64,000 nucleotides of DNA from Escherichia coli (GTDB lineage: Bacteria > Pseudomonadota > Gammaproteobacteria > Enterobacterales > Enterobacteriaceae). A program made the position numbers and the translations under genes. Below the pieces are notes generated by a model, which worked only from the letters and a program-made list of their open reading frames with translations, made no database searches and was not told the DNA's origin. The stretch lies in assembly GCF_003334405.1 (NCBI RefSeq), contig NZ_QOWM01000003.1. The stretch is one strand, 5' to 3'. Below are positions 13,274 through 20,664 of the stretch, one piece after another; the stretch's first letter is position 1, and every line of letters starts with the position of its first letter.

Positions 13274-15184
13274 GTGACGGACGATTTTGCACCAGACGGT
13301 CAGCTGGCGAAAGCGATACCAGGCTTTAAGCCGCGAGAACCACAGCGACAGATGGCGGTAGCCGTCACCCAGGCGATAGAAAAAGGCCAGCCGCTGGTGG
13401 TGGAAGCAGGAACCGGTACGGGCAAAACCTACGCTTACCTGGCTCCTGCGCTGCGGGCGAAAAAGAAAGTCATTATCTCGACCGGCTCAAAAGCGTTGCA
13501 GGATCAGCTCTACAGCCGCGATTTGCCAACAGTCTCAAAGGCATTGAAATATACGGGCAACGTGGCGCTGCTGAAAGGGCGCTCAAACTACCTCTGCCTC
13601 GAACGTCTCGAACAGCAGGCGCTGGCGGGGGGCGATCTGCCGGTACAAATCTTAAGCGATGTGATCCTGCTGCGCTCCTGGTCTAATCAAACAGTCGATG
13701 GTGATATCAGCACCTGCGTCAGCGTGGCGGAAGATTCACAGGCGTGGCCGCTGGTCACCAGCACCAACGACAACTGTCTTGGCAGCGACTGCCCGATGTA
13801 TAAAGATTGCTTTGTGGTCAAAGCACGTAAAAAAGCGATGGACGCCGATGTGGTGGTGGTAAACCATCATCTCTTTCTGGCGGATATGGTGGTTAAAGAG
13901 AGTGGATTTGGCGAACTGATCCCGGAAGCGGACGTCATGATCTTCGACGAAGCCCACCAGCTACCGGACATTGCCAGCCAGTATTTTGGTCAGTCACTCT
14001 CCAGTCGACAACTGCTCGACCTGGCAAAAGACATCACCATCGCCTACCGCACCGAATTAAAAGACACCCAGCAGTTACAAAAGTGCGCTGATCGTCTTGC
14101 CCAGAGTGCGCAGGATTTTCGTCTGCAACTCGGTGAGCCAGGTTATCGCGGTAACCTGCGTGAGCTGTTAGCTAATCCGCAAATTCAGCGGGCATTTTTA
14201 CTGCTCGATGACACCCTGGAACTTTGTTATGACGTGGCGAAACTGTCACTGGGGCGTTCCGCCTTGCTGGATGCGGCATTTGAGCGCGCCACGTTGTATC
14301 GCACACGGCTGAAGCGGCTAAAAGAGATCAATCAGCCGGGCTACAGCTACTGGTACGAATGCACTTCGCGCCATTTTACTCTGGCTCTCACGCCGCTCAG
14401 CGTGGCGGATAAATTCAAAGAGTTAATGGCGCAAAAACCCGGTAGCTGGATCTTCACCTCAGCAACGCTGTCGGTGAACGACGATCTGCATCATTTCACC
14501 TCGCGGCTTGGCATCGAACAGGCCGAGTCGTTGCTGTTGCCCAGCCCATTTGATTACAGCCGCCAGGCGTTACTCTGTGTGCCGCGCAATCTGCCGCAAA
14601 CCAACCAGCCAGGTTCTGCTCGCCAGTTAGCGGCAATGCTGCGACCGATCATCGAAGCTAACAACGGTCGTTGTTTTATGCTTTGTACCTCGCACGCCAT
14701 GATGCGCGATCTGGCCGAGCAGTTCCGCGCTACCATGACGCTTCCTGTATTGTTGCAGGGGGAAACCAGCAAAGGGCAACTGTTGCAGCAATTTGTCAGC
14801 GCCGGTAATGCGCTTCTTGTGGCAACCAGCAGTTTCTGGGAAGGGGTGGACGTGCGTGGCGATACATTGTCATTGGTAATTATCGACAAATTGCCGTTTA
14901 CCTCGCCGGATGATCCACTGTTAAAAGCGCGCATGGAAGATTGTCGTTTGCGCGGTGGCGACCCGTTCGATGAAGTGCAACTACCAGATGCCGTCATTAC
15001 TCTCAAACAGGGGGTAGGGCGACTGATTCGCGACGCCGACGATCGTGGCGTGCTGGTGATTTGTGACAATCGGCTGGTGATGCGTCCTTACGGCGCGACG
15101 TTTCTCGCCAGTCTGCCGCCCGCGCCACGCACCCGTGACATTGCCCGTGCGGTTCGTTTCCTTGCGATACCATCCTCCAGGTAA
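13274..15184 (+). CDS. yoaA: DinG-family ATP-dependent helicase YoaA
   Basis: ORF track 636 aa with GTG start; Walker A GTGTGKT, DEAH box (FDEAHQL), four-Cys Fe-S cluster motif (CLGSDCPMYKDC). Confidence 0.93.
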   Translation: MTDDFAPDGQLAKAIPGFKPREPQRQMAVAVTQAIEKGQPLVVEAGTGTGKTYAYLAPALRAKKKVIISTGSKALQDQLYSRDLPTVSKALKYTGNVALLKGRSNYLCLERLEQQALAGGDLPVQILSDVILLRSWSNQTVDGDISTCVSVAEDSQAWPLVTSTNDNCLGSDCPMYKDCFVVKARKKAMDADVVVVNHHLFLADMVVKESGFGELIPEADVMIFDEAHQLPDIASQYFGQSLSSRQLLDLAKDITIAYRTELKDTQQLQKCADRLAQSAQDFRLQLGEPGYRGNLRELLANPQIQRAFLLLDDTLELCYDVAKLSLGRSALLDAAFERATLYRTRLKRLKEINQPGYSYWYECTSRHFTLALTPLSVADKFKELMAQKPGSWIFTSATLSVNDDLHHFTSRLGIEQAESLLLPSPFDYSRQALLCVPRNLPQTNQPGSARQLAAMLRPIIEANNGRCFMLCTSHAMMRDLAEQFRATMTLPVLLQGETSKGQLLQQFVSAGNALLVATSSFWEGVDVRGDTLSLVIIDKLPFTSPDDPLLKARMEDCRLRGGDPFDEVQLPDAVITLKQGVGRLIRDADDRGVLVICDNRLVMRPYGATFLASLPPAPRTRDIARAVRFLAIPSSR

Positions 15185-15976: not shown

Positions 15977-16558
15977 ATGGCGGTTCAAAAGAATGTTATC
16001 AAAGGCATACTGGCAGGTACGTTTGCGCTAATGCTGAGCGGTTGTGTCACTGTGCCGGACGCCATTAAAGGCAGCAGTCCCACGCCGCAACAAGATTTAG
16101 TTCGGGTGATGAGTGCGCCGCAGCTGTACGTTGGTCAGGAGGCACGCTTTGGTGGCAAAGTGGTTGCGGTACAAAACCAGCAAGGGAAAACTCGCCTGGA
16201 AATTGCTACCGTACCGCTGGACAGCGGAGCCAGACCGACGCTGGGAGAACTTTCTCGCGGTCGCATTTATGCCGATGTGAACGGTTTTCTGGACCCGGTG
16301 GATTTCCGTGGACAACTGGTTACGGTAGTCGGGCCAATCACTGGTGCGGTTGACGGCAAAATCGGCAATACGCCCTATAAATTTATGGTGATGCAAGTAA
16401 CGGGTTACAAACGTTGGCATTTAACCCAGCAGGTGATTATGCCGCCTCAGCCGATTGATCCATGGTTTTATGGCGGTCGTGGCTGGCCCTATGGCTACGG
16501 CGGATGGGGCTGGTATAATCCCGGCCCCGCGAGAGTACAAACAGTTGTAACTGAATAA
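15977..16558 (+). CDS. yeaY: Slp-family outer membrane lipoprotein YeaY
   Basis: ORF track 193 aa; signal peptide with lipobox LSGC. Confidence 0.9.
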
Positions 16559-16673
16559 TTGCTTGTTTTTAAAGAAAAAGAAACAGCGGCTGGTCCGCTG
16601 TTTCTGCATTCTTACGGTAAAGATAAAAATAAATAGTGACGCGCTTCGCAACCTTTTCGTTGGGTAATTATCA

Positions 16674-16690
16674 AGCTGGTATGATGAGTT
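16674..16690 (+). promoter_or_regulatory. FadR operator candidate in the fadD promoter
   Basis: AGCTGGTATGATGAGTT matches the FadR consensus ANCTGGTCNGACCTGTT at the CTGGT, GA and GTT positions; about 70 bp upstream of fadD start. Confidence 0.55.
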
Positions 16691-16762
16691 AATATTATGT
16701 TAACGGCATGTATATCATTTGGGGTTGCGATGACGACGAACACGCATTTTAGAGGTGAAGAA

Positions 16763-18448
16763 TTGAAGAAGGTTTGGCTTAACCGTTATCCCGCGGACGT
16801 TCCGACGGAGATCAACCCTGACCGTTATCAATCTCTGGTAGATATGTTTGAGCAGTCGGTCGCGCGCTACGCCGATCAACCTGCGTTTGTGAATATGGGG
16901 GAGGTAATGACCTTCCGCAAGCTGGAAGAACGCAGTCGCGCGTTTGCCGCTTATTTGCAACAAGGGTTGGGGCTGAAGAAAGGCGATCGCGTTGCGTTGA
17001 TGATGCCTAATTTATTGCAATATCCGGTGGCGCTGTTTGGCATTTTGCGTGCCGGGATGATCGTCGTAAACGTTAACCCGTTGTATACCCCGCGTGAGCT
17101 TGAGCATCAGCTTAACGATAGCGGCGCATCGGCGATTGTTATCGTGTCTAACTTTGCTCACACACTGGAAAAAGTGGTTGATAAAACCGCCGTTCAGCAC
17201 GTAATTCTGACCCGTATGGGCGATCAGCTATCTACGGCAAAAGGCACGGTAGTCAATTTCGTTGTTAAATACATCAAGCGTTTGGTGCCGAAATACCATC
17301 TGCCAGATGCCATTTCATTTCGTAGCGCACTGCATAACGGCTACCGGATGCAGTACGTCAAACCCGAACTGGTGCCGGAAGATTTAGCTTTTCTGCAATA
17401 CACCGGCGGCACCACTGGTGTGGCGAAAGGCGCGATGCTGACTCACCGCAATATGCTGGCGAACCTGGAACAGGTTAACGCGACCTATGGTCCGCTGTTG
17501 CATCCGGGCAAAGAGCTGGTGGTGACGGCGCTGCCGCTGTATCACATTTTTGCCCTGACCATTAACTGCCTGCTGTTTATCGAACTGGGTGGGCAGAACC
17601 TGCTTATCACTAACCCGCGCGATATTCCAGGGTTGGTAAAAGAGTTAGCGAAATATCCGTTTACCGCTATCACGGGCGTTAACACCTTGTTCAATGCGTT
17701 GCTGAACAATAAAGAGTTCCAGCAGCTGGATTTCTCCAGTCTGCATCTTTCCGCAGGCGGTGGGATGCCAGTGCAGCAAGTGGTGGCAGAGCGTTGGGTG
17801 AAACTGACCGGACAGTATCTGCTGGAAGGCTATGGCCTTACCGAGTGTGCGCCGCTGGTCAGCGTTAACCCATATGATATTGATTATCATAGTGGTAGCA
17901 TCGGTTTGCCGGTGCCGTCGACGGAAGCCAAACTGGTGGATGATGATGATAATGAAGTACCACCAGGTCAACCGGGTGAGCTTTGTGTCAAAGGACCGCA
18001 GGTGATGCTGGGTTACTGGCAGCGTCCCGATGCTACCGATGAAATCATCAAAAATGGCTGGTTACACACCGGCGACATCGCGGTAATGGATGAAGAAGGA
18101 TTCCTGCGCATTGTCGATCGTAAAAAAGACATGATTCTGGTTTCCGGTTTTAACGTCTATCCCAACGAGATTGAAGATGTCGTCATGCAGCATCCTGGCG
18201 TACAGGAAGTCGCGGCTGTTGGCGTACCTTCCGGCTCCAGTGGTGAAGCGGTGAAAATCTTCGTAGTGAAAAAAGATCCATCGCTTACCGAAGAGTCACT
18301 GGTGACTTTTTGCCGCCGTCAGCTCACGGGATACAAAGTACCGAAGCTGGTGGAGTTTCGTGATGAGTTACCGAAATCTAACGTCGGAAAAATTTTGCGA
18401 CGAGAATTACGTGACGAAGCGCGCGGCAAAGTGGACAATAAAGCCTGA
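16763..18448 (+). CDS. fadD: Long-chain fatty acyl-CoA synthetase FadD (561 aa, TTG start)
   Basis: ORF track 16697..18448; start placed at TTG ([13 protein letters not shown]...) preceded by GAGG 7 nt upstream; AMP-binding signature [12 protein letters not shown] present. Confidence 0.9.
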
Positions 18449-18466
18449 GCGTTAAGTCAGTCGTCA

Positions 18467-18493
18467 GACGCCGGTTAATCCGGCGTTTTTTTT
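18467..18493 (+). terminator. Rho-independent terminator after fadD
   Basis: GACGCCGG-TTAAT-CCGGCGT hairpin followed by eight T. Confidence 0.8.
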
Positions 18494-18517
18494 GACGCCC
18501 ACTAAAGAGAAAACAAT

Positions 18518-19645
18518 TTGAATTACCAAATGATTACCACGGACGATGCGCTGGCTTCTTTGTGTGAAGCCGTCCGTGCCTTTCCGGCGATAGCCCTGGA
18601 TACTGAATTTGTTCGTACGCGCACTTATTACCCGCAGCTGGGGTTGATTCAACTTTTCGATGGCGAGCATCTGGCGCTAATCGATCCACTCGGGATCACC
18701 GACTGGTCACCGCTGAAAGCGATCCTGCGCGATCCGTCCATCACAAAATTTCTCCATGCAGGCAGTGAAGATCTGGAAGTGTTCCTCAATGTCTTTGGCG
18801 AATTACCACAACCCTTGATTGACACGCAAATCCTTGCTGCCTTCTGCGGACGCCCGATGTCATGGGGTTTCGCTTCCATGGTGGAAGAGTATTCCGGCGT
18901 TACGCTGGACAAGAGTGAATCGCGCACCGACTGGCTGGCCAGACCGCTGACCGAACGTCAGTGTGAATACGCAGCGGCGGATGTCTGGTATCTGTTACCG
19001 ATCACCGCCAAGCTTATGGTAGAAACGGAGGCCTCCGGCTGGCTACCTGCGGCGCTGGATGAATGCCGCCTGATGCAAATGCGTCGTCAGGAAGTCGTTG
19101 CGCCGGAAGATGCCTGGCGTGATATCACCAATGCCTGGCAATTACGCACACGCCAACTGGCCTGTCTGCAACTGTTAGCCGACTGGCGACTGCGCAAGGC
19201 GCGAGAGCGCGATCTGGCGGTGAACTTTGTCGTGCGTGAAGAGCATTTGTGGTCGGTAGCGCGTTATATGCCGGGAAGTTTAGGCGAACTGGACAGCCTG
19301 GGTTTATCCGGTAGCGAAATCCGCTTTCACGGTAAAACGCTGCTAGCGCTGGTGGAAAAAGCGCAGACATTGCCGGAAGATGCCTTACCGCAGCCGATGC
19401 TTAACCTGATGGACATGCCGGGTTATCGTAAAGCGTTTAAAGCGATTAAGTCGCTGATTACTGACGTGAGCGAAACGCATAAGATCAGCGCCGAATTGCT
19501 GGCATCGCGTCGGCAAATCAACCAACTGCTGAACTGGCACTGGAAACTGAAACCGCAGAACAATTTGCCGGAGCTGATTTCCGGCTGGCGTGGTGAGCTG
19601 ATGGCGGAAGCATTACACAATTTATTGCAGGAATATCCGCAGTAA
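18518..19645 (+). CDS. rnd: Ribonuclease D (375 aa, TTG start)
   Basis: ORF track 375 aa beginning at TTG 18518; DEDD exonuclease motif (IALDTEF); AAGAG Shine-Dalgarno upstream. Confidence 0.92.
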   Translation: MNYQMITTDDALASLCEAVRAFPAIALDTEFVRTRTYYPQLGLIQLFDGEHLALIDPLGITDWSPLKAILRDPSITKFLHAGSEDLEVFLNVFGELPQPLIDTQILAAFCGRPMSWGFASMVEEYSGVTLDKSESRTDWLARPLTERQCEYAAADVWYLLPITAKLMVETEASGWLPAALDECRLMQMRRQEVVAPEDAWRDITNAWQLRTRQLACLQLLADWRLRKARERDLAVNFVVREEHLWSVARYMPGSLGELDSLGLSGSEIRFHGKTLLALVEKAQTLPEDALPQPMLNLMDMPGYRKAFKAIKSLITDVSETHKISAELLASRRQINQLLNWHWKLKPQNNLPELISGWRGELMAEALHNLLQEYPQ

Positions 19646-19651
19646 AATCTT

Positions 19652-19694
19652 CCGAAGCCGGACTGGGCGCGCTCAGCGCCACATCCGGCTTCGG
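19652..19694. terminator. Bidirectional stem-loop between convergent rnd and yeaX (REP-like)
   Basis: CCGAAGCCGGA ... TCCGGCTTCGG inverted repeat with GC-rich interior; sits between two convergent stops. Confidence 0.6.
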
Positions 19695-19698
19695 CAAA

Positions 19699-20664
19699 CT
19701 ACAAATCCAACACCAGGCGTTTACCCTTCGCACGCGAACAACAGATCAACATACTTTGCTGGCTGGCACGCTCTTCATCGCTAAAATATTGATCCCGATG
19801 GTCAGCTTCACCTTCCAGTATTGCTGTTTCGCAGGTTCCGCATACCCCTTCACGACATAAACATTCCACTTTCGCGGCTTTATTATTTTCAATAACCTGC
19901 AAAATAGTCATCTCTTCCGGCACCACAAACTCTTTTCCGGAACGGGCAAGCACCAGGGTAAATGCATCGCCGGTTTTGTCTTCGATAGCAAATTGCTCAA
20001 AGTGCAGCGTATCGGCGGCGATGTCCAGACGCGCAGCTTCACTTCTTACCGCTTCAATTAGCGCCTCGGGGCCACAGGTATAAACGTGTGTGCCAGGTTC
20101 GATATCCGCCAATAATCGCGCTAATTCCAGTCGTGTTCCGGTTGATGAATGATGCAAATGGACTTTCTCAGCCTGCGGATGCTGGACTAGCTCATCACGA
20201 AATGCGCAACTTTCTGGATTTCGCGAGCAGTAATGTAGCTGCCAGTCGACGTCGCTGTGTTGCAGCTCTGCCATGTGCGACAGGAAAGGGGTGATACCAA
20301 TACCGCCCGCGATAAACAGATGCTTTCTGGCTGAGGGAATTAGCGCAAACAGGTTATTAGGCGTTGAAATCGTTAACCGATCGCCCACTTTTACCTGCTG
20401 ATGCAAAAAGCGGGAACCGCCGCGCGAGTTTTCCTCCAGCCGAACGGCAATCTGATAACAAGAGGTGTCATGCGGCGAACTCAGTAGTGAATACGCATTG
20501 CTGTACTGGTTATCACCATCGCTCATCTGCACAATGACGTGACTTCCTCCGGTAAACGCAGGTAATGGTTTGCCATCGGTTGCCACCAGCGTGAAGCGTT
20601 TCACCTGTTCGGTAAGGGGTTCAACCTGGCTCACCTGTACTTCAAACATTTGATAGTCTGACAT
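19699..20664 (-). CDS. yeaX: Carnitine monooxygenase reductase subunit YeaX
   Basis: ORF track 321 aa; C-terminal plant-type 2Fe-2S ferredoxin Cys cluster (CREGVCGTCE); flavin/NAD reductase-like N-terminal region. Confidence 0.9.
   Translation of the reverse strand: MSDYQMFEVQVSQVEPLTEQVKRFTLVATDGKPLPAFTGGSHVIVQMSDGDNQYSNAYSLLSSPHDTSCYQIAVRLEENSRGGSRFLHQQVKVGDRLTISTPNNLFALIPSARKHLFIAGGIGITPFLSHMAELQHSDVDWQLHYCSRNPESCAFRDELVQHPQAEKVHLHHSSTGTRLELARLLADIEPGTHVYTCGPEALIEAVRSEAARLDIAADTLHFEQFAIEDKTGDAFTLVLARSGKEFVVPEEMTILQVIENNKAAKVECLCREGVCGTCETAILEGEADHRDQYFSDEERASQQSMLICCSRAKGKRLVLDL

Follow-up and report, generated by a model that had tools for sequence, protein, structure and literature searches.

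The fadD-rnd region

The window analysed here is a stretch of 64,000 nt from Escherichia coli (assembly GCF_003334405.1, contig NZ_QOWM01000003.1). Its sequence is a 100% match to that of E. coli K-12 MG1655, and the RefSeq annotation was taken from the MG1655 record. It includes the adjacent genes fadD and rnd, both on the + strand, and a sequence-only reading of the window had proposed that each requires initiation at a TTG codon. All the coordinates and statements about sequence in that reading were found to be correct on re-checking.

The start regions of both genes were aligned for 80 species of Enterobacterales, and 5,426 E. coli genomes were searched for the exact start-region sequence and for its ATG variant (the remainder being the K-12 allele). 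The strength of a Shine-Dalgarno (SD) sequence is given as the energy of its duplex with the 3' end of 16S rRNA, for which the median of the genes in the window is -6.9 kcal/mol and the background -3.4 kcal/mol. The TTG starts of fadD and rnd are both real, and both were documented before this analysis; what is new is the conservation of the two TTG codons across the order, the RefSeq start of rnd lying four codons late, and a possible second start of fadD at an ATG further upstream.

The start codon of rnd

Two features define the alternatives for the start of rnd.

18518 to 19645, + strand: rnd coding sequence with TTG start, 375 aa (conservation; UniProt RND_ECOLI; PDB 1YT3)
18530 to 18532, + strand: ATG at codon 5 of rnd, used as the start (371 aa) by PGAP/RefSeq, not the true start (PGAP coordinates; variability)

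The TTG start codon occupies positions 18518-18520, and the first in-frame ATG (18530) is codon 5, i.e. four codons downstream as the sequence-only reading had it. Codon 1 is TTG in 76 of the 80 species, GTG in three and CTA in one; ATG is found in none. The changes at positions 1/2/3 number 0/1/9, 0/0/9 and 2/2/7 for codons 2, 3 and 4 respectively, while the leader on the 5' side of the TTG varies at all positions, and the switch from a non-coding to a coding pattern of substitution in the 80 species falls exactly at the TTG. Of the 5,426 E. coli genomes, 5,413 have the TTG, and none has the ATG version of the K-12 allele that was searched for. Both UniProt RND_ECOLI and PDB 1YT3 contain the 375-aa form beginning MNYQM. 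A stop codon lies five codons upstream of the TTG and there is no viable alternative start, the downstream ATG being variable and lacking an SD sequence. In Edwardsiella there is an ATG one codon 5' to the position of the rnd TTG.

Initiation at ATG 18530 would give a protein of 371 aa. This is the PGAP annotation and the form is abundant in databases, but we consider it extremely improbable that rnd begins there. Codon 5 is ATG in 56 of the 80 species and is otherwise TTG, CTG, ATA, TTT, TAC or TTA, with seven independent changes; among the 24 species lacking ATG, eight have a non-canonical codon (CTG, ATA, TTT, TAC or TTA). The calculated SD energy is -0.9 kcal/mol (i.e. no SD), codons 2 to 4 on its 5' side exhibit clean coding-type conservation, and the protein is 375 aa in both PDB and UniProt. 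The comparative data already refute the shorter form. Codon 5 is an ordinary variable hydrophobic position, occupied here by an internal Met. Since ATG 18530 is an internal Met codon, the RefSeq/PGAP start of rnd is four codons short. It had also been stated that UUG initiation of rnd is documented; the literature bears this out, and the comparative data confirm it decisively.

The leader of rnd

The region between the two coding sequences contains the following elements.

18407 to 18492, + strand: sroD small RNA, comprising the fadD 3' end and terminator (Rfam RF00370)
18466 to 18493, + strand: GC-rich hairpin followed by T8, i.e. the fadD/SroD intrinsic terminator and also the U-rich element of the rnd leader (terminator scan match)
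18505 to 18511, + strand: weak SD-like AAGAGAA of rnd, the sole conserved block of the rnd leader

AAGAGAA has undergone 4-7 changes per site, compared with 10-24 in its neighbours, yet its duplex energy is only -2.9 kcal/mol. The hairpin (18466-18488) and the T8 run (18486-18493) lie 25-50 nt 5' to the UUG, so that a run of U follows a GC hairpin on the 5' side of the SD, which is the layout of a U-rich enhancer. The segment 18440-18560 has a folding z of -3.0, and 63 of the 80 species have a run of at least five T in the 70 nt preceding rnd. The U-rich region of rnd mRNA has been described as a translational enhancer (Zhang & Deutscher 1988, 1989, 1992), the U-tract reportedly being needed for translation and 30S binding and not for the level of mRNA (Zhang & Deutscher 1992, as cited in later work). 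Theirs is the same locus: the start is UUG 18518, the SD is weak, eight U follow a GC hairpin, and nothing differs. Reviews cite rnd as an example of a U-rich enhancer acting on a UUG-initiated mRNA.

The match to RF00370 scores 115.2 bits against a gathering score of 50 and covers model positions 1-86 of 86; SroD has been described as a small RNA encoded in the 3' end of fadD (PMC5874903). Rfam matches to snoR9 and sR30 (E ~0.7-0.9) fall far under their gathering scores and were dismissed as chance. A scan of the fadD 3' end for consensus promoters found no rnd promoter. For rnd three things are new: the UUG is conserved throughout the order, the PGAP ATG is shown to be incorrect, and the U-rich element overlaps sroD.

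The start codon of fadD

fadD begins with TTG at 16763-16765, preceded by an extended SD sequence.

16763 to 18448, + strand: fadD coding sequence with TTG start, 561 aa (RefSeq; UniProt LCFA_ECOLI length; EcoGene verified set)
16752 to 16758, + strand: fadD SD sequence GAGGTGA (seven consecutive base pairs to the 3' end of 16S rRNA)

The GAGG core (16752-16755) is separated from the TTG by a spacer of 7 nt. Complementarity to 16S rRNA extends to GAGGTGA, the 3' end of which is 4 nt short of the TTG and so at a functional spacing. The duplex energy of -11.7 kcal/mol (species median -12.4 kcal/mol) places this SD among the top three of the 57 genes of the window, equalled by just two of the other 56, and its core is invariant in the 80 species. 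The leader is less folded than all 200 of 200 shuffled sequences, and codons 2 and 3 are A-rich.

Codon 1 of fadD is TTG in 75 of the 80 species and GTG in five; neither ATG nor a synonymous Leu codon is ever found. It has changed three times on the tree, each time at the first base, compared with 19 changes at the Leu codon 6 of the same gene. The fadD TTG therefore evolves as a start codon, unlike a sense Leu codon. Within E. coli the exact 35-mer containing the TTG occurs in 5,415 of 5,426 genomes and the tested ATG variant in none. Black et al. (1992) reportedly found methionine at residue 1 of FadD, the native N-terminus being Met-Lys-Lys-Val-Trp. A search of the PDB for E. coli FadD returned no structure that could show the N-terminus of a construct. 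The EcoGene set of N-terminally sequenced proteins includes fadD and gives the TTG as its 'true' site. The assignment of TTG 16763, with GAGG 7 nt upstream, as the start of fadD thus agrees with the re-checked sequence, RefSeq, the verified set and conservation.

The fadD promoter and the first upstream ATG

In-frame ATG codons had been noted upstream of the TTG at 16697 (-22 codons) and 16730 (-11 codons). Both are present, and the open reading frame 16697..18448 has no stop before the TTG. The first of these falls in the promoter.

16674 to 16690, + strand: FadR operator AGCTGGTATGATGAGTT, promoter-proximal, -29 to -13 relative to the transcription start of the literature
16687 to 16701, + strand: ArcA-box-like GTTAATATTATGTTA over the -10 region, containing the in-frame ATG 16697-16699 (TTAATATTATGTTAAC is conserved across the 80 aligned species)
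16703, + strand: fadD transcription start, base A (60 bp 5' to the translation start in the literature, i.e. 16763 - 60)

The FadR operator coincides with a block AACTGGTAcGcTGAGTT that is >90% conserved in the alignment of 80 species; its identity as a FadR site is established knowledge and is given in PMC3460868. The ArcA site is probably as assigned here, from its resemblance to the consensus and from the placing of an ArcA site against a FadR site in PMC3460868. ATG 16697 is upstream of the mapped transcription start and is excluded as a start of fadD for that reason; in addition it lies within the conserved promoter/ArcA-like block and lacks an SD sequence, with an energy of only -2.3 kcal/mol. 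A scan of the fadD leader for consensus promoters gave one alternative promoter-like site, TTAATA-18-TATCAT (16689-16718), at chance level.

A candidate second start in the fadD leader

The second ATG is located within the leader.

16721 to 16724, + strand: GGGG, SD-like, 5 nt 5' to the leader ATG (GGGG in Enterobacteriaceae, GAGG in Pantoea/Erwinia)
16730 to 16732, + strand: leader ATG, in frame, 11 codons 5' to the TTG; candidate start of a 572-aa protein (conservation, SD, TetRP)

ATG 16730 is inside the mRNA, 27 nt from the mapped transcription start, and no stop codon separates it from the TTG. The fadD transcript therefore contains a candidate competing in-frame start, and the UUG may not be exclusive; this touches the exclusivity of the UUG, not its authenticity. 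With the conserved GGGG or GAGG the SD energy for ATG 16730 is -5.9 kcal/mol, near the median of the window genes and compared with the background of -3.4 kcal/mol, and thus one transcript carries two in-frame start codons each with an SD sequence. The ATG is present in 70 of the 80 species, where it is among the most conserved triplets of the leader, and its spacing to the TTG is always exactly 33 nt. The codons following it show a mild third-position excess, with 16/17/44 (p = 5e-5) and 40/33/65 (p = 0.002) changes at positions 1/2/3, a periodicity carried by three to five codons. In the coding sequence the changes are 13/7/105, so that non-synonymous change is far higher in the extension (40/33/65).

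These observations raise the possibility that fadD is a dual-start gene, in which the UUG (561 aa) and the leader AUG 16730 (572 aa, with an 11-residue extension) are used on the same mRNA. This would complement the UUG start and not replace it. We regard dual initiation as a serious candidate that falls somewhat short of an even chance. Table S5 of the tetracycline ribosome profiling (TetRP) study of 2016 has a row 'alt-N'(new) fadD -33', which corresponds to ATG 16730, with a signal of 4.04 compared with 0 for CmRP; this signal is near the threshold, was obtained in cells where fadD is repressed, and fadD is missing from the main re-annotation table of the paper. The TetRP tables searched give no value for the UUG. 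Hon-yaku (2007) flagged fadD as a candidate for multiple translation initiation sites (TIS), counting the upstream ATG as a 'false positive' of gene finders, and a 572-aa FadD is called by many genome annotations. On the other hand ~10 species, among them Yersinia, Rahnella, Rouxiella and Edwardsiella, have lost the ATG, and in Chimaeribacter it is frameshifted to give a short uORF. The supplements of N-terminomics and riboproteogenomics studies (TRAINSPOTTER 2026; mBio 2024) list neither fadD nor rnd, and contain no peptide from the extension. A literature search for fadD with retapamulin returned nothing relevant.

Could AUG 16730 be the sole or main start, the TTG being an internal Leu codon and the reported N-terminus a product of processing? 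The Hon-yaku score is 0.663 for the ATG against 0.013, the TetRP signal is at this codon, and maturation is a general caveat raised by the Hon-yaku authors. Yet in the 80 species the TTG varies to GTG alone and never to CTN or TTA, in contrast to Leu codon 6, and the strongest SD (-11.7 kcal/mol) is placed for the TTG and not for the ATG. Moreover, the TTG with its SD is kept in the ~10 species that lack the ATG or have it in another frame. The methionine said to occupy residue 1 is also at odds with an internal Leu codon, as is the listing of the TTG start as verified in EcoGene. We consider initiation solely or mainly at the AUG very improbable.

Authentic initiation at the UUG, possibly with some use of the AUG, is the reading that we prefer. 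Of the proposal that fadD requires TTG, the authenticity of the TTG and the exclusion of ATG 16697 (5' to the transcription start) therefore stand. Exclusivity is doubtful, given a leader ATG with an ordinary SD, conserved in 70 of 80 species and with a TetRP signal, and 'requires' may be too strong a word for this gene. More tentatively, the region might be a conserved two-start arrangement, in which an AUG with a modest SD precedes the strong-SD UUG by 33 nt (approximately one ribosome footprint), retained in Enterobacteriaceae and Erwiniaceae. The UUG might then be held weak since the balance of the starts matters, either for the 572/561-aa ratio or through AUG-loaded ribosomes occluding or feeding the UUG, for example under FadR derepression.

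Probable selection on the two UUG codons

We conclude that fadD and rnd very probably have authentic, anciently conserved UUG starts, each maintained in its particular setting by purifying selection, and that they are neighbors only through inherited gene order. In rnd the UUG is accompanied by a weak SD (AAGAG). The U-tract of the hairpin-U8, i.e. the fadD/SroD terminator when it is read through into rnd, would serve as a ribosome-binding enhancer, and the predicted outcome is low expression by the mechanism of Zhang and Deutscher. In fadD the UUG is accompanied by the very strong GAGGUGA, A-rich codons 2 and 3, an unstructured 60-nt leader and a promoter controlled by FadR, ArcA and CRP. This initiation region is strong, and the weak UUG would therefore be offset; such a logic of compensation is likely to apply to the fadD UUG.

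Genome-wide, switches from UUG to AUG are favored. The start codons of fadD and rnd have together changed 5-6 times, and all the changes are to G or C (crude p ~0.01-0.02, for very few events). The lack of an AUG switch in either gene despite the genome-wide trend suggests that the weak codon is selected for. The suggestion that weak start codons tune low expression holds for rnd, where UUG is associated with a weak SD, but is a poor fit for fadD with its very strong SD and unusually unstructured leader.

Relation to known systems

The fadD TTG and the FadR/ArcA/CRP promoter correspond to the locus described previously (Black et al. 1992; Feng & Cronan 2012). The classical description does not include the leader AUG at -33, which is known from the 'false positive' of 2007 and a single supplement row of 2016. 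The paradigms of dual initiation given by Hon-yaku are infB (IF2-alpha/beta) and lysC of B. subtilis. Like these, fadD carries on a single mRNA two in-frame start codons, both preceded by an SD; it differs in that the starts are 33 nt apart (approximately one footprint), the additional 11 residues are poorly constrained, and the long proteoform is a candidate only. A UUG with an SD of 7-8 bp fits the compensation of GUG and UUG by a stronger SD (Belinky, Rogozin & Koonin 2017). By contrast, the UUG and weak SD of rnd run opposite to that trend.

The main value of these results is for annotation, where the RefSeq start of rnd is four codons short. FadD proteins of 561, 572 and 583 aa, and RNase D of 375 and 371 aa, are found in public databases, with no fewer than 1,000 contigs for every length. 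The two genes also provide a clean case of a weak start codon actively retained against drift to AUG, in contexts of both strong and weak SD. If the leader AUG is in use, fadD would be one of the few bacterial genes with dual starts, and engineered fadD starting at the TTG, or with the TTG converted to ATG, would differ from the native gene.

Adjacency, and other non-ATG starts in the window

The adjacency of the two TTG starts is not statistically notable and has no demonstrated meaning. With a TTG frequency of 1.9-4.4%, between 1.6 and 8 adjacent TTG-TTG pairs are expected by chance per genome. A functional link, in which the two UUGs are jointly controlled by IF3 level, cold or growth phase and their adjacency is selected, might be suggested by the conservation of both codons together with the gene order in the 80 species, and by the physical connection that sroD and its terminator make between the 3' end of fadD and the rnd leader. 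However, besides the expectation from chance, the initiation regions are opposite in character (very strong SD in fadD, very weak in rnd), the functions of the genes are unrelated, and a search of the literature found no link between them, so that joint control is highly unlikely.

GTG starts had also been assigned to five other genes, and all five are in the RefSeq annotation.

13274 to 13276, + strand: yoaA GTG start (RefSeq); no upstream alternative, next ATG 26 codons downstream
25750 to 25752, + strand: leuE GTG start (RefSeq); next ATG 39 codons downstream
28792 to 28794, - strand: dgcP GTG start (RefSeq); next ATG 28 codons downstream, TTG 43 codons upstream
40037 to 40039, + strand: mipA GTG start (RefSeq); stop 3 codons upstream, no ATG within 40 codons
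51655 to 51657, + strand: ydjF GTG start (RefSeq); next ATG 12 codons downstream

RefSeq has further GTG starts, absent from the earlier list, for manX, sdaA and nudL. Among 62 starts in the window there are thus eight GTG and one or two TTG, counts that are normal for E. coli, and enrichment of the window in non-ATG starts was rejected.

Start codons of fadD and rnd

The window represents E. coli K-12 MG1655; its region 16400-19700 has 100% identity to NZ_CP032667.1 and is present in 5,426 of 5,426 complete E. coli genomes. In one of these assemblies it maps to a plasmid-labelled record, which could be a misassembly or a plasmid-borne chromosomal segment. The coordinates of the sequence-only reading are all correct on the + strand. 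fadD begins at TTG 16763, preceded by GAGG (16752-16755) with a spacer of 7 nt, and has in-frame ATG codons upstream at 16697 and 16730 with no stop between. The gene for RNase D, rnd, begins at TTG 18518, and its first in-frame ATG is at 18530.

Both UUG starts, the hairpin/U-tract enhancer of rnd, the promoter architecture of fadD and the RNA sroD have already been described, and therefore the finding of TTG starts in these genes is already known. The new elements are the order-wide conservation figures, evidence of a wrong PGAP start for rnd and an assembled case for an AUG in the fadD leader, previously just a gene-finder "error" and one row of a supplementary table. The three forms of FadD and both forms of RNase D are widespread in databases (RNase D of 375 and 371 aa each on at least 1,000 contigs), so that the annotation of these starts has practical value.

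The fadD TTG is the start in RefSeq and UniProt, and the gene belongs to the EcoGene set verified by N-terminal sequencing. We compared 80 orthologous loci, one per species, ranging from Escherichia to Pectobacterium, Yersinia, Serratia, Pantoea and Edwardsiella. Codon 1 of fadD is TTG in 75 species and GTG in five, and in none of the 80 is it ATG or another leucine codon. It has changed three times, in each case from T to G at position 1, against 19 changes at leucine codon 6 on the same tree; the TTG thus evolves as an initiator and not as a sense codon. The exact 35-mer around it occurs in 5,415 of 5,426 E. coli genomes, and an ATG variant in 0 of 5,426.

The Shine-Dalgarno (SD) sequence of fadD, GAGGUGA, forms a 7-nt duplex with the 3′ end of 16S rRNA (-11.7 kcal/mol; species median -12.4), a strength matched by just two of 56 other window genes. 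The leader and start region (16703-16800, 98 nt) has a minimum free energy of -13.8 compared with a shuffle mean of -21.7 (z = +2.7), and is less structured than 200 of 200 dinucleotide shuffles. The strong SD and unstructured leader would offset the weak start codon.

Initiation of rnd at UUG is documented, as had been claimed: the literature describes a UUG-initiated mRNA. Codon 1 is TTG in 76 of the 80 species, GTG in three and CTA in one, Edwardsiella ictaluri, where ATG lies directly upstream. PGAP and RefSeq place the start at ATG 18530 (371 aa, WP_001307844.1), at odds with TTG 18518 (375 aa); UniProt RND_ECOLI and PDB 1YT3 have the 375-residue MNYQM form. The ATG at 18530 is codon 5, which is ATG in just 56 of 80 species (otherwise TTG, CTG, ATA, TTT, TAC or TTA), with seven independent changes on the tree. 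By parsimony, codons 2-4 (N-Y-Q) have 0/1/9, 0/0/9 and 2/2/7 changes at positions 1/2/3, while the leader is variable throughout apart from a short AAGAGA, and the switch from non-coding to coding substitution falls exactly at the TTG. The SD energy is weak at the TTG (-2.9 kcal/mol), and ATG 18530 has no SD (-0.9). We therefore reject ATG 18530, a variable codon lacking an SD, as the start, since coding conservation begins at the TTG; on this comparative evidence the 371-aa PGAP call is judged to be four codons short.

The exact context of the rnd TTG is found in 5,413 of 5,426 E. coli genomes. It comes in two alleles, distinguished by A18512T in the spacer between SD and start (A, the K-12 allele, in 3,263 and T in 2,150). 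With ATG substituted in the K-12 allele, the context occurs in 0 of 5,426. Among the 80 species, only the Edwardsiella lineage carries an ATG in the rnd start region, one codon 5′ of the usual TTG; E. ictaluri and E. hoshinae (loci L076 and L081) have ATG-CTA and ATG-TTG there. Here a codon seems to have been added, giving a rare switch to AUG that did not involve mutation of the UUG.

Switches from UUG to AUG are favoured genome-wide relative to neutral expectation, according to published work. The absence of AUG among the five to six start-codon changes in fadD and rnd is mildly significant (crude p ~0.01-0.02), and this pattern of substitution suggests that the weak start codon is retained on purpose in both genes. 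The proposal that weak starts tune low expression suits rnd, with its weak SD, but has no obvious fit to fadD, with its strong SD and unstructured leader. Conversion of the rnd UUG to AUG reportedly raises expression of RNase D, an excess of which is said to be harmful.

Upstream ATG codons of fadD

ATG 16697 is rejected as a start, because it lies upstream of the mapped transcription start and has no SD (-2.3). This ATG is promoter DNA: the block around it, TTAATATTATGTTAAC, shows strong conservation, includes the -10 region along with an ArcA-box-like repeat, and adjoins a conserved FadR operator. Further upstream, after yeaY, a hairpin with an 11-bp stem (16579-16605) resembles a terminator when read on the minus strand, on which it is followed by a T-run. 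Within the hairpin is GGCTGGTCCGCTGTTTC, which matches fadD's distal FadR operator; terminator and operator therefore share sequence.

ATG 16730 is 27 nt into the fadD mRNA. It is kept in 70 of 80 species, invariably 33 nt from the TTG, ranking among the most conserved triplets of the leader. Five nt before it is GGGG in Enterobacteriaceae and GAGG in Pantoea and Erwinia, and its SD energy is moderate at -5.9 (median of annotated window genes -6.9, background -3.4 ± 2.7). The codons that follow, M-T-T-N (ATG-ACN-ACN-AAY), show third-position wobble. Changes on the tree at positions 1/2/3 number 16/17/44 for codons -10 to -8 (p = 5e-5) and 40/33/65 for codons -10 to -6 (p = 0.002), and the same counts give no third-position phase in the stretch 5′ of the ATG. 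Substitution here is weakly codon-like. Table S5 of Nakahigashi et al. (2016) lists "alt-N'(new) fadD -33, 572 aa", with ribosome-profiling signals of TetRP 4.04 vs CmRP 0, and the gene finder Hon-yaku (2007) predicted this ATG over the verified TTG, fadD being proposed as a multi-TIS candidate.

However, the TetRP signal was obtained in fadD-repressed cells and lies close to threshold, many non-synonymous changes are tolerated in the 11-codon extension, and the ATG has been lost in ~10 species. In Chimaeribacter (L072, L074) a 1-nt deletion puts it out of frame, and no peptide for the extension was found in N-terminomics or riboproteogenomics supplements. We regard a genuine second start at ATG 16730, used alongside the TTG, as a tentative proposal that is rather more doubtful than probable, and a conserved AUG/UUG dual start in fadD as rather unlikely, although of moderate interest if true. 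The leader AUG would give a possible 572-aa FadD proteoform. That it is the sole or main start is highly improbable. The earlier statement that both genes require TTG initiation thus identified the starts rightly, but "required" is too strong for fadD given the support for ATG 16730. The Chimaeribacter frameshift creates a 16-codon uORF overlapping the fadD TTG start.

The rnd leader and sroD

Two features lie at the junction of the genes:
18407-18492, sroD sRNA (Rfam RF00370, 115 bits, full-length)
18466-18493, hairpin and T8 element

According to published studies, the U-rich leader of the rnd mRNA is a translational enhancer that binds 30S subunits, and the fadD 3′ end yields the RNA sroD. 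sroD covers the final 42 nt of fadD plus the hairpin/U-tract, and therefore one element serves as fadD/SroD terminator and as rnd leader enhancer. SroD may be either a fragment of the fadD 3′ end or an rnd leader transcript that terminated early.

Other non-ATG start codons

TTG starts make up a few per cent genome-wide. The share in the N-terminally verified EcoGene set is 1.9%. At these rates chance alone gives 1.6-8 adjacent TTG-TTG pairs per genome; the adjacency of fadD and rnd therefore needs no explanation, and the sequence-only reading was mistaken in treating it as notable.

The GTG starts that it assigned to yoaA, leuE, mipA, ydjF and dgcP agree with the RefSeq annotation of the identical record, which adds three that it did not list:
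4461, minus strand, manX GTG start
9577, minus strand, sdaA GTG start
10339, minus strand, nudL GTG start

RefSeq start codons in the window comprise 53 ATG, eight GTG and one TTG, and non-ATG usage is ordinary. Of the eight GTG starts, that of sdaA is the least secure, because there is an in-frame ATG only six codons downstream.
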